NCBI GenBank assembly: GCA_036339465.1
Contig: JAYZAY010000080.1
Location: 1-13,453, forward strand
DNA length: 13,453 nt
Source: Myxococcota bacterium
GTDB taxonomy: Bacteria; Myxococcota; XYA12-FULL-58-9; JABJBS01
Direction: 5' to 3'
Shown: piece by piece, positions 6,001-9,000 of the stretch
Position numbering within the stretch: the stretch's first letter is position 1
Layout: each line of letters opens with the position of its first letter
Position numbers: made by a program

Positions 6001-9000
6001 TGGGACGGTGAATGTTTGGGAAGTTCCAGGTTACCGAATTGAGATGTCTCCTTTTGGCGGGATCAAGAATTCTGGATTGGGGTATAAAGAAGGTGTCTTA
6101 GAAGCAATGAAGAGTTTCACCAATGTGAAAACCTACTCCTTGCCGTGGCCATCGTGAAATGGGGATCCACGGTGATTAGGAGTTGGTATTGTAGGATTGA
6201 CCGATGCCGCAGTGTCCCGGACGTAAGGTCATCGTTTTCTGATGGAGTCCTCAGGTAACGGTGGCTTTGGTTAGAAACTTCGGTTGAATATCCCTTTGGG
6301 ACAGTGGTCGAATGATGTTTTGTGCGAAACTCCACCCACAAAAGTTCGACGAGATGCAACGCAAAGAGTCCACCCACTCTCCCCTGCCCCTCTCCGAACG
6401 CTCACCGAGACCTCCCACATTTCTGCTTCTATCGCGATTGGCGTTGGACGAGGCATTACCTGCGGGGATGATTTTCCCGTAGAGGAAAGCTTCGGAGAAG
6501 GTGTGGAGGGCGCAGATCAATCCGTTAAGGCCAGTAAATCCGATGATGGTGTTTTTGGGATTTACATGAAATCTGATCGACTATGCCCCTAGAGCGAGAG
6601 AAAAAGAACAGGATTAAAATTCCTGTCGCAGGTCTTCGCTTCCAGCGGTAACCCCCCAGTTTTCTGGGCATGAACAACCTGGTGATTCTGGTCGGCCTGT
6701 AGCTGGTGTAAGATTCTCCCAATATTCTTGGTTTGCCCTTTTTCGTACCCATGGTTTGGTATGCATAATTAAGTCTGCTCCCCAGGGGCTATGCTTTTCA
6801 CTTCCGACAGGAAGGCGCCCGTGTTCTTCAGAGAGTTCTTCAGCAATCGCGCGAATATGGTATGGTTCAGTACCACAGCACCCACCGATGTAGCGGACAC
6901 CCATCTCCCAGGCTTGCCGAGCAAACTTCTGCATTTCCCAGCGTGTACAAACCCTTGGCTCTAAAGAAAAAGGAAATTCAGGTAGATCAATAAATCCCTG
7001 TTTTTGTGCGTCTGGTGTTAAATACCCCAATGGTTGAACCATGAGATACGGAGTTAATCCTGCTGCATCCAAGGCCCCTTTCATTGCTTCAATGGTTTTT
7101 AAACTCACAAAGGGGTCAAAATGACAATTCACGCCCACTATATCGGCCCCAGCTTTTGCCATGCGCACGGCGCATTCCCCAGCATCCACACCATGAAGAT
7201 CACCATCAGCATTAATGCACATATTGGCAGCCACAGGGACATTCATTTCCTTAAGAACTTCAATTGCCCACTCTATCTCTTCGACGTGTTCAAAGTATTC
7301 AGCAATCATAAAATCTACATTATTCGCCTTAAACACTTCCGTTTGTTTTCGGAATTCCTCTTGAACTTTGGCTTTTCCTAGACCGCTGAGATAGGTGGGG
7401 GTCTGGCAGACACCACCAGCGATGAGTCCATTGCCTTCATTGGCAACTTCTCGGGCCAGCTTGCAGGCGGCTTCATTAATATCTCTCACGCCATACTTTT
7501 TAGCAGCTTCATTGCCTCGGTTTTGGAGCTTGTCTTCGCTGGCATAAAAAGTAAAGGTTTGCATCACGTCTGAACCTGCCCGTAGGAATTCCCGGTGTAA
7601 TTGCCGTACGGCTTCCGGATGCTCAACGGTTGCCTCGGGAGTCCATGGTCCCCCTCTTACATAGCCTCTTTTCTCCAGAGAAAAAACAAATCCGCCATCC
7701 CCGATAACTAGACCCTTTTCTAACCGTTCTAAAATGTTCATTATGATTCCTTAATGTTGGTAATTGGTAGGCAGGAAGTAATCCTTATTTTCAGACATCA
7801 AATAATTCCCCCCGAATATATTATGCAAAAAGCAGATTAGAATGGAATAGATTTCTCTAGATGTTTGGCAAAATATTCCACACTTCGATTTTCGTAAAAT
7901 AGTGTAGTTCACCCATGCTTGGTAAAAGCGGAGGATAGGATTTTTGGTTGGGGATGTATTTGGTAAAAGAGTAAAGCACTACCGTCTTGTGTACATTTCA
8001 GGCCTAAGGGTAGGTCTACCCTTTCGCGGTGATGATTTTGTTTTCGTTTTGGAACTTCACGGTTGTTCAAAAAAAATAAAGTAAAAGTAGATCAATCAAG
8101 AGTACGATTGTATCACCTAGCCTGCCTGGAGGGGCTAGATCCGCCGAACCTTCTGATTTATTAAATAAATCAGATAATATCACCTACCATCTTGGACCAG
8201 AAAACGGCATTAAGATAAGCCACCATTCGGCCTAAGAACCACCCTACTTCTTTTCGTCTCCTAAGAAGTATTGCACAGTTCCATACTCGACCCCACGAAG
8301 ATGGTCCTTCTTCTCCTTTTTAACATCCGATATCAGCTTTCGAACTGCGTCATAACAGAAAGGAAGTATCCCGAAAATACTTTCTTGAAATAGGTGGTCT
8401 TCGTCAATTGTTCGCAGGGTTTTTCTCTTTCTTAACATGGGAATTCCGAGACCGAAAATCAATCGTTTTTTACTTATGCTGTATTCATTGAAGTAATTAA
8501 TTTTACATTGCGTGAATTTCTGCCCCGTGGCGGCCTCGAACCATTGTCTGTTTTTTGGTGTCGAATACAATAAGCTATGAGTCAGGCTTCGGTGGAACCT
8601 GTTACGATAGCGCTGGTCACTTAGTATTTTCCGGATAAAAAGTTCCCATTGGTCGAGATGTTGCTTCCGATTTTGGGGCTGATTTTCTAATGGCATTTTT
8701 TCATCAAAGAAAAGCTCATAAAGAGAGTGTGCATAGCTTAACTTATCGCCGGAGAAAACAATGTTTTTTTTGTGTTGATTTAACTCTGAAATATGCCTTT
8801 GTAGTTCCCTATACTTAGATGAATTAATGTATTTCCTTGTTGCTCTATTAGCTTCTGACTTACCTGAAAGGTCGACTGAAACTTCCTGGAAATCAATATA
8901 TTCACGGTAGATTTTAAAATTCCCTTTTCTCATATAGGCATTCTTCGCTTCTACAAAAGTTCGTATTTTCAGGGTCTGGTTGTCCTTTGTGTTATTATGA

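Follow-up and report, generated by a model that had tools for sequence, protein, structure and literature searches.

The closest described enzymes are the rat and human BHMT1 (EC 2.1.1.5; PDB entries 1umy, 1lt7/1lt8, 4m3p and 8d45), in which, according to passages of PMC4516251, a C-terminal helix (residues 381–406/7) makes the tetramer contact. The same passages (Ganu 2015, PMC4516251) describe BHMT2, the S-methylmethionine-homocysteine methyltransferase, as reportedly monomeric and as lacking nine residues of the N-terminal region that are linked to betaine use; the C-terminal helix is likewise missing from BHMT2. Bacteria have a BHMT of their own (NCBIfam NF005718), discussed for Sinorhizobium, SAR11 and Roseobacter in sections of PMC9321204. 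It shares the Pfam domain and the expected reaction, the first step of betaine demethylation, and is encoded next to DMGDH. Finally, the clade of ‘carnivorous sponge associated iridovirus’ carries an intronless animal BHMT1 outside animals.

The window analysed here is the whole of C80, a contig of 13,453 nucleotides from G000, a metagenome-assembled genome (MAG) said to belong to Myxococcota. The genome-wide survey's note had reported a 375-residue animal-type BHMT in this genome, and the gene is indeed there: the reading frame at 6614..7741 on the minus strand is intact and intronless, starts with ATG and is preceded by AAGGA 7–8 nt 5′ of the start. Its product (P0001) matches Pfam PF02574 with 171.8 bits, residues 12–303 covering the entire barrel profile (positions 1–283 of 283). 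The best PDB matches are rat 1umy and human 8d45, 4m3p and 1lt7 (E from 8e-175 to 5e-172), residues 2–374 being aligned to residues 12–385 of the BHMT1 chain with a single one-residue gap; the next PDB family, MetH, follows at 1e-18. The similarity to BHMT1 is full-length and closer than that to any other homocysteine methyltransferase. Identity is about 68% over the barrel, the dimerization arm and the linker, a level relative to solved structures at which the predicted fold is not in question. A search of 5.8e9 proteins returned P0002 (94%) and P0003 (88%) at the top, below which the named matches are animals only, at 67–73% identity; a search of the ESM Atlas gave only generic PF02574 clusters. 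The bacterial BHMT belongs to a different clade: the model NF005718 scores 93.8 bits on our protein against a cut-off of 338, the protein of G003, a genome of the same family, is 43–45% identical, and the branch to this clade is about 1.2 changes per site long in two trees. The GC content of the gene is 0.477, versus 0.489 for the genome.

In a 12-row alignment (A1), N205-C206-H207 and G286-G287-C288-C289-G290 are invariant, including the three zinc-binding cysteines C206, C288 and C289. The zinc cysteines of human BHMT are C217, C299 and C300, and the alignment to rat 1umy gives the offset of 11. Trp33, Tyr66, Glu148 and Tyr149 are also invariant in A1, so that P0001 has the cysteine triad in common with mammalian BHMT1, as well as the Trp, Tyr and Glu of the active site. 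The dimerization arm (319–370) and the hook (362–365) are present, the alignment running gap-free through rat residue 385, with His327 through Pro351, Ser357 and Pro359 invariant in A1. The differences from mammalian BHMT1 lie at the ends: about nine N-terminal residues are absent, as is most of the C-terminal helix, the last residue of the protein being the one that pairs with rat 386. All five clearly bacterial rows of A1 (P0001, P0002, P0003, P0050 and P0098) stop 17–25 residues short of the animal rows. The survey's description of a retained zinc site and a lost tail therefore holds. Because the helix that holds animal tetramers together is missing, the foreign BHMT probably works as a dimer. 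The gene product is most likely a betaine-homocysteine S-methyltransferase that depends on zinc and belongs to the animal BHMT1 type, and dN/dS against six copies of the donor lineage described below is 0.027–0.037.

Few of the bacterial genomes searched have this type of enzyme. None of the 60 relatives of G000 searched here, compared with 400 Myxococcota genomes in the survey, has it, in agreement with the survey's view that the protein is closer to animals than to its own phylum; their best match is the 45% identical protein of G003, the others reaching about 30% within frames of 600–1250 residues. The animal type was found in one of the 61 genomes around G000 and in two of the 41 around G061, a genome of the donor lineage. 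When 185,579 species genomes were scanned with a pattern, three loci came up, one of which is a contaminant consisting of vertebrate-like BHMT pieces on contigs of 717 and 517 bp in a Fredinandcohnia assembly. The 90%-identity cluster of our enzyme holds 344 member sequences, one of which is found on 37 contigs. Searches of the literature outside subscription journals turned up no description of a bacterial BHMT of the animal type. The contigs from an RNA library (X10) may represent carried-over DNA.

Only one part of the window, 6536–7982 (1.45 kb), aligns to DNA of other bacteria that carry such a gene, at 78–85% nucleotide identity. Besides the BHMT gene, it contains an upstream noncoding block (7742..7879, minus strand), which moved with the gene and includes the AAGGA ribosome-binding site, and a remnant of a gene at each end. 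Homology to L008, L019, L020 and L022 reaches position 7982, and 7880..7982 (minus strand) is a decayed remnant of the last 20–30 or so codons of the donor's upstream 236-residue ORF, of unknown family and seen in L008; a comparison of the translations of the window and L019 gives ...NTSPTKNPILRFYQAWVNY..., with a stop just upstream. At the other end, 6536..6613 (plus strand) retains, in decayed form, the 3′ end of etfA, which is convergent in the donor (alignment A2, and a comparison of the C-terminus of EtfA with the end of the window ORF at 6284–6592). A terminator-like hairpin at 6607–6627 (minus strand) overlaps the BHMT stop codon. A sigma-70 scan of 6100–8400 gave no sites, compared with 3.5 expected, and an Rfam scan of the whole window gave no matches, hence no known riboswitch upstream. 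A 14-nt direct repeat (6462–6475 and 8026–8039, 13 of 14 positions matching) brackets the cassette; by a rough estimate, about 0.4 such pairs would be found by chance in 2.3 kb, and the repeat is given no weight here.

The BHMT of G000 is 89–95% identical to copies on 13 other contigs, where, unlike animal BHMT1, the gene lies in a conserved betaine-catabolism cluster with genes for an Fe–S oxidoreductase, EtfAB, a dimethylglycine oxidase-like protein, a BCCT transporter and a GMC protein (as assigned by Pfam on L006). The 12 metagenome or MAG contigs with 89–99% identity to the BHMT of L006 all show the same neighbours, within the reach of each contig. L008, a 2-kb contig of a 1.3-Mb MAG (G062), is titled Candidatus Neomarinimicrobiota, currently named Fidelibacterota at NCBI, and G061, the genome to which L006 belongs, has G062 among its 40 relatives. 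A DMGDH query found nothing in G062, a 1.3-Mb MAG. As G061 has no rpoB match, the list of its relatives was used in place of an rpoB yardstick for G000, G061 and G062. The donor would be a marine bacterial lineage of MAGs, one of which is labelled Fidelibacterota, a label that rests on binning, G061 itself being titled only ‘uncultured bacterium’. In the phylogenetic tree the G000 copy is nested inside the donor contigs (99/94). The rest of the pathway is discordant: between G000 and the donor, identity is 55% for DMGDH, 49% for EtfB, 46% for EtfA and 54% for BCCT, versus 91% for BHMT. The homology is limited to the gene and short flanks ending in stubs of the donor's neighbours, as in a transferred cassette. 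Given the 89–95% identical copies, the shared 1.45-kb block and the decayed ends that remain of both donor neighbours, the BHMT of G000 was evidently obtained from another bacterial lineage and not directly from an animal. The animal–bacterium transfer proposed by the survey consequently stands for the inter-domain step but not for G000 itself, whose source is a bacterial cassette. Relative to the closest of the sampled donors dS is 0.88, so either the transfer took place long ago or the actual donor is not in the sample.

The cassette is not an assembly chimera, because contigs of independent runs from two different studies bridge both of its junctions: those of run X2 cover 7732–8219 with no differences and 6466–6982 with 18 differences, and run X8 covers 7790–8022 with no differences. 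Run X1 also contains the stretch; gaps in run coverage carry no weight in this argument. The Fredinandcohnia case shows that a real BHMT contaminant does exist in another assembly, and one might suspect animal DNA or cDNA, or a chimeric assembly, here too. The bridged junctions speak against such an artefact, as does the setting of the gene, which has bacterial genes to its left and right within a contig of 13.5 kb. In addition, the cassette DNA differs by 15–22% from every sampled donor and its stubs are decayed, both of which indicate evolutionary time rather than contamination. We consider this explanation barely credible.

The neighbours of the cassette are unlike those of the donor cluster. 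On one side lies a 2-aminoethylphosphonate degradation operon, phnW-phnA-phnY (2330..6157, plus strand); the survey had noted bacterial phosphonate genes alongside, and all three products score above their NCBIfam cut-offs (536.7 versus 296 bits for PhnW, 545.8 versus 407.55 for PhnA and 817.7 versus 635.65 for PhnY). On the other, upstream side lies a 1070-residue orphan gene (8244..11456, minus strand) with no Pfam or NCBIfam family. As the survey had found, it has a single family match: among five same-family genomes only G005 has a homologue, with 54% identity over residues 351–1065 and 41% over 37–368, and the gene appears to tie C80 to the family of the genome. A search for an empty site found the G005 orthologue followed by an amino-acid permease, with no phn genes, hence no synteny and no pre-insertion state. 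At the contig end, the segment 1..1004 (minus strand) shows 93% DNA identity to the 1004 bases at one end of C42, a 50.9-kb contig of the same bin, and C42 and C80 break at the identical base; the 3′ end of C80 has 73–77% identical repeats in common with C23. These observations bear on the possibility that C80 was mis-binned, in which case the Myxococcota host and the replacement proposed below would be binning artefacts. This reading draws on C80 being a 13.5-kb MAG contig, on the absence of a match to the PhnA query in all five same-family genomes and on the GC content of 0.39–0.44 in the region 7500–11000, below the 0.489 of the genome; moreover, the tetranucleotide distance of C80, although 21% of 259 chunks of that size have a larger one, is the binners' own criterion and not an independent check. 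It is countered by the orphan orthologue, the links to C42 and C23, the flanks foreign to the donor cluster and the state of the native pathway in G000. The survey's concern about mis-binning is thus reduced but not removed, and we regard mis-binning as improbable.

That native state can be read by comparison with G003, where a 349-residue bacterial-type BHMT is encoded directly upstream of DMGDH. The DMGDH of G000 is 80.7% identical to that of G003, yet upstream of its DMGDH-EtfBA genes, at C37:7805–7981, only residues 1–47 of the native BHMT are left, fused in frame to residues 320–333. This deletion remnant has no catalytic barrel, in a genome with a completeness of 92.8% and an otherwise intact downstream pathway. 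The native bacterial-type BHMT thus appears to have been replaced by the foreign gene, and because the native enzyme lost its barrel, the foreign one would supply dimethylglycine to the native downstream pathway.

The predicted reaction is most likely the conversion of glycine betaine, together with homocysteine, into dimethylglycine and methionine, betaine activity being suggested by the conserved residues and the context of the donor cluster. We may wonder whether the enzyme instead uses S-methylmethionine or a different donor, for example DMSP, and serves methionine salvage rather than the breakdown of betaine. The missing C-terminal helix is a feature of BHMT2 (passages of PMC4516251), the gene does not adjoin betaine genes in G000 and some bacterial bhmt homologues are inactive on betaine, as stated in a section of PMC9321204. 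However, where BHMT2 lacks nine residues, P0001 has no gap relative to rat BHMT1 (query residues 10–374), which is a test of length and not of function. Furthermore, all 13 donor contigs place the gene beside those for the dimethylglycine oxidase-like protein, EtfAB, BCCT and GMC, within the reach of each contig, and in G000 it is the BHMT beside DMGDH that has decayed. We give such a change of substrate little credence compared with betaine use.

It remains to consider how an animal-type enzyme came to be in bacteria. All named matches in the protein searches are metazoan. Two ML trees place the bacterial clade as the sister of (P0122,(P0054,Hydra)), with 98/94 support, and nest it in crown animals; bootstraps are unsettled in both, and the two row sets overlap. 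The AU test, applied to groups named after the tree was seen, rejects a clade made up of the crown eukaryote and virus rows from which the bacteria are left out (p = 0.0025). The animal type is present in every animal phylum sampled, compared with the handful of bacterial loci above. Some inter-domain transfer must have occurred, judging from these relationships, and the animal-to-bacterium direction is favoured but not proven. The reverse would have a bacterium giving BHMT to an early animal ancestor, with the marine bacterial copies as vertical survivors. The AU test indeed retains the bacterial clade beside the bacterial outgroups, outside all eukaryotes (p = 0.081 and 0.18), which bears out the survey's caution about direction. 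Lengths also rise stepwise from the outgroups (334–349 residues) through the bacterial clade (374–378) to crown animals (390–410), and the basal eukaryote rows Sycon, P0124 and P0136, on long branches, likewise have no C-terminal helix; a search with P0136 as query brought up close relatives that are all unnamed. In addition, three protein searches returned no named non-animal eukaryote, from which it would follow that animals themselves obtained or invented the type. Set against the nesting next to Hydra, the rejected crown clade and the uneven distribution between animals and bacteria, this direction seems unlikely, though it deserves to be kept in mind. Whatever its direction, the event lies at the base of the bacterial clade and is older than the transfer into G000; the clade is internally deep (70% identity between sub-branches, including that of P0050 and P0098, which are encoded on contigs of 12–17 kb) and hence not a recent arrival. 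The iridovirus BHMT represents an independent event: its clade has a copepod sequence as sister (99/98 and 98/93), is not close to the bacterial one, keeps the C-terminal tail and has an insert of 20–30 residues.

We therefore propose the following history for animal-to-bacterium transfer. A copy of an animal BHMT1 gene, free of introns, would have entered a marine bacterial lineage, lost its C-terminal helix and joined a bacterial choline/betaine catabolic cluster with genes for a BCCT transporter, a GMC choline dehydrogenase-like protein, a dimethylglycine oxidase-like dehydrogenase, EtfAB and an Fe–S oxidoreductase. A 1.45-kb piece of this cluster, with the BHMT gene, the region upstream of it and stubs of the two adjoining genes, was then inserted into G000 between the orphan gene and the phosphonate operon, a step that the sequence shows. 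As a whole, a BHMT1-type enzyme, a two-step transfer and a native replacement together form what we consider the probable account. When the relay is specified in full, from an animal (possibly cnidarian-like) BHMT1 through a betaine-degradation operon of abundant, Fidelibacterota-binned ocean bacteria to a Myxococcota-like bacterium whose native enzyme was displaced, the chances for and against seem to us about equal.

Gene flow from an animal to a free-living bacterium is rarely documented, and more rarely still for a core enzyme under strong purifying selection. In this case the foreign enzyme would be widespread in an ocean population as part of a betaine operon, and would since have reached a second phylum, where it took the place of the resident enzyme. 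Surveys of marine betaine turnover that use only bacterial bhmt models, such as those in the sections of PMC9321204 mentioned above, would overlook this type or attribute it to zooplankton. In its truncated form, the protein also offers a natural test of whether BHMT activity needs the C-terminal helix. If the proposed history is true, an animal enzyme would be a working, mobile part of osmolyte turnover in marine bacteria.

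The BHMT gene of the Myxococcota-labelled genome G000 is an uninterrupted frame of 375 codons with an ATG start (6614–7741, minus strand), preceded at 7–8 nt by AAGGA. Its product matches Pfam PF02574 across the entire domain and the rat and human BHMT1 structures with E values of 8e-175 to 5e-172, residues 2–374 being aligned on chain residues 12–385 with one single-residue gap. The genome-wide survey's note had called it an animal-type BHMT, and its figures were reproduced: in a search of 5.8 billion proteins the top matches are two metagenome clusters (94% and 88% identity), below which all named matches are animal BHMT1 (67–73%). 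The zinc-site motifs NCH and GGCCG, said there to be kept, do not vary across an alignment of 12 rows, and neither do W33, Y66, E148 and Y149; the C-terminal tail is missing as described, the bacterial-length proteins ending 17–25 residues short of the animal ones, and about nine N-terminal residues are also absent from them. The curated bacterial BHMT model (NCBIfam) gives 93.8 bits compared with the 338 required. The protein is also closer to animals than to its own group, as proposed: the animal type was found in none of the 60 relatives of G000 searched, the best match being 45% in the same-family genome G003, and the others being matches of about 30% that form part of far longer frames. 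The dN/dS values of 0.027–0.037 against six copies indicate strong purifying selection. It should be noted that an RNA library labelled as a metatranscriptome (X10) contains two contigs inside the gene (6917–7486, no differences), which hints at transcription, carried-over DNA being the alternative source.

As judged from its sequence, the protein has the BHMT1 barrel in full, together with the zinc site, the dimerization arm and the linker. It would turn betaine and homocysteine into dimethylglycine plus methionine, and the dimethylglycine would be passed to a DMGDH–EtfBA system; a passage in PMC9321204 describes BHMT as providing methionine regeneration that is not dependent on B12. Because the protein stops at the residue aligned to rat 386, it lacks the C-terminal helix 381–406/7, which in a section of Ganu et al. 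(PMC4516251) is the tetramerization element of BHMT, the BHMT2 protein without this helix being described there as monomeric. Since the dimerization arm and hook are intact, we would expect a dimer. The enzyme family is a known one, to which the protein belongs in all but the terminal helix.

The gene lies in a cassette (6536–7982), both junctions of which are bridged by contigs from other public runs: in X2 a 488-base contig covers 7732–8219 with no differences and a 517-base contig covers 6466–6982 with 18 differences, and a contig of X8, which belongs to a different study, covers 7790–8022 with none. The cassette adjoins a phnW–phnA–phnY operon (2330–6157), all three products of which score above the NCBIfam cut-offs, in agreement with the phosphonate-catabolism genes reported there by the survey; the predicted route leads from 2-aminoethylphosphonate to acetate and phosphate. 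The substrates of both the betaine and the phosphonate pathway are common compounds of marine animals. Also adjoining the cassette is a 1070-aa orphan (8244–11456; GC low at 0.42) with no family match. PhnA is found in none of the five same-family genomes, and the operon may therefore have been acquired as well; the same absence would fit a mis-binned contig (C80) from another organism. Such an origin is unlikely given that the orphan, as the survey had stated, has a match in the family (G005 only among five genomes, 54%, in a counterpart split over two contigs), that G000 holds a broken native BHMT, and that C80:1–1004 and the final 1004 bases of C42, a contig of 50.9 kb, match at 93% identity in opposite orientation (C42:49915–50918). 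In both contigs the break falls at the same base, within a gene for 294 aa that belongs to no known family (87% amino-acid identity); these ends represent either a paralog pair or a strain fork at which the assembly broke. Of 259 equal-sized chunks, 21% have a greater tetranucleotide distance from the genome centroid than C80; this check uses the same kind of signal as binning and is not independent of it. Segments on either side of a Ser/Thr kinase gene (11639–11731 and 13145–13453) are 73–77% identical to C23:10952–11224, and the window has internal repeats at its 3′ end.

When 185,579 species, represented by one genome each, were scanned by pattern, three loci were returned. L006, on a 16-kb contig, is a 91% copy in G061, a MAG titled ‘uncultured bacterium’, and L008, at one end of a 2-kb contig, matches the first 71 residues at 96% in G062, a MAG titled Candidatus Neomarinimicrobiota (filed by NCBI under Fidelibacterota, and which we take to be the former Marinimicrobia/SAR406 group). 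Within the set of 41 genomes made up of G061 and its 40 relatives, which include G062, the gene is confined to G061 and G062. A metagenome scan gave ten full-length copies (89–95%; L019–L028) and two partial ones (L071 and L085). In L006, BHMT is accompanied by a CCG/4Fe–4S oxidoreductase (upstream), EtfA, EtfB, an 838-aa DAO–FAO_M–GCV_T protein, a BCCT transporter and a GMC oxidoreductase; this order is kept in 12 of 12 other contigs as far as each reaches (stated n = 12: L008, L019–L028, L071 and L085), with neighbour proteins 71–96% identical to those of L006. The 838-aa protein is nearest to bacterial dimethylglycine oxidase (E = 4e-166, compared with 1e-95 for animal DMGDH); the cluster is therefore bacterial, with BHMT alone being of the animal type. 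It is a choline to betaine to dimethylglycine to sarcosine pathway, of which BHMT is the first demethylation step. A 236-aa ORF matching no Pfam or NCBIfam family (L008:975–1685) lies between the Fe–S oxidoreductase and BHMT, also in L019, L020, L022, L023 and L026, and is absent from L006, L024 and L025. The third locus, a 65% fragment in a Fredinandcohnia aciditolerans assembly (L007, 717 bp), was rejected as a bacterial copy: with L017 (517 bp) it forms uninterrupted vertebrate-like BHMT1 pieces, 79% identical to mink/fish, and both are probably cDNA-like contamination of that record.

Only the cassette aligns to the donor contigs (78–85% nucleotide identity), the window being unrelated to them elsewhere. 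A stretch of about 75 bases 3′ of the BHMT stop, now frameshifted, can be aligned with the donor's convergent etfA at its 3′ end, and the upstream end comprises the intergenic region and the last 20–30 codons of the 236-aa donor ORF (…NPILRFYQAWVNY…), with a stop codon just ahead of this remnant. Both ends are stubs of the donor's neighbouring genes. The G000 pathway genes lie elsewhere (DMGDH–EtfB–EtfA on C37, BCCT on C89 and GMC on C40) and are 55% (DMGDH), 49% (EtfB), 46% (EtfA), 54% (BCCT) and 67% (GMC) identical to those of the donor, compared with 91% for BHMT. In a protein tree the G000 copy falls inside the group of cluster-bearing contigs (99/94), the homologous protein P0003 being outside. 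The stubs, the discordant identities and the nested copy show that this transfer went from the donor lineage to G000. The animal–bacterium transfer proposed by the survey's note therefore stands in part: an animal-type gene does lie in bacterial DNA, but G000 received its copy from a bacterial lineage, as a 1.45-kb cassette with donor stubs. As dS is 0.88 between this copy and the nearest one (L019), either the move is an old one or the sampled copies do not include the true donor. A 14-nt direct repeat (6462–6475 and 8026–8039, 13 of 14 matching), 44–60 bp outside the limits of homology, could be a chance match.

The older step concerns the animal type itself, whose named members are all animals (Mnemiopsis at 61%, Sycon at 48%, Trichoplax, cnidarians and many bilaterians); protein database searches gave no named non-animal eukaryote among its matches. 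In a 54-row ML tree (LG+C20+F+G4 by PMSF) all ten bacterial rows group in a single clade (95/94), which splits deeply into two sub-branches, the G000 type and P0050/P0098, with 70% identity between them. The sister of this clade is (P0122,(P0054,Hydra)), at 98/94, both here and in a 48-row tree with Trichoplax, Rhopilema, echinoderms and vertebrates added and 17 long or redundant rows removed. The clade lies inside a crown of cnidarians, bilaterians, ctenophore and viruses (97/89 with 54 rows; crown support 96/93 with 48), below which Sycon, P0124 and P0136 branch in the 54-row tree; the bootstrap had not converged in either tree and the two sets overlap. In AU tests, of groups named after the trees had been inspected, a grouping of the 33 crown rows (eukaryotes and viruses) to the exclusion of the bacteria is rejected (p = 0.0025, ΔlnL 16.2). 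In the unrooted topology the bacterial clade has a firm place beside the Hydra group, and the rooting hinges on where the long outgroup branch attaches. An animal-to-bacterium direction is favoured because the type occurs throughout animals and only here and there in bacteria. Passage from bacterium to animal is fairly unlikely; the AU tests do not reject a grouping of the bacterial clade with the bacterial outgroups (p = 0.081, ΔlnL 30.9 in the first test; p = 0.18, ΔlnL 19.0 in the second). The viral rows form a clade that is sister to a copepod sequence in both trees, and the BHMT of invertebrate iridoviruses is a separate capture of animal BHMT. One 148-kb iridovirus-like metagenome contig encodes a 416-aa BHMT (L072:9986–11236, 59% to the window protein) near Bro-N/T5orf172, HMG-box, TBP-like, kinase and FkbM genes; some twenty related proteins (69–83%) lie on contigs of up to 195 kb, and one (P0291) is named ‘carnivorous sponge associated iridovirus’.

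In G003, a single contig carries DMGDH and, immediately upstream of it, a 349-aa bacterial-type BHMT (PF02574; the 45% match), and the DMGDH of G000 (C37) is 80.7% identical to that of G003. In G000, C37:7805–7942 aligns to residues 1–47 of the G003 BHMT (51% identity, E = 1.5e-4 over the whole genome), and the same frame continues into residues 320–333 at C37:7940–7981. This remnant (C37:7805–7981), directly upstream of DMGDH–EtfB–EtfA, carries an in-frame deletion of about 270 codons that takes out the entire barrel with the zinc site, and its GDGG motif is altered. A search of the 92.8%-complete assembly found no further bacterial-type BHMT, the remaining matches being to frames of the MetH-like and the 626-aa bifunctional type.

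The finding is confirmed and has more layers than its first reading had, with hosts assigned at the MAG level. Searches of the literature outside subscription journals found no report of a bacterial clade of animal-type BHMT, of its recruitment into a bacterial betaine operon or of its onward transfer with displacement of a resident gene, and all three appear to be new. In G000 the acquired BHMT is the only candidate for feeding the native DMGDH operon; it appears to have displaced the native bacterial-type gene, whose breakage gives a functional reason for the acquisition.
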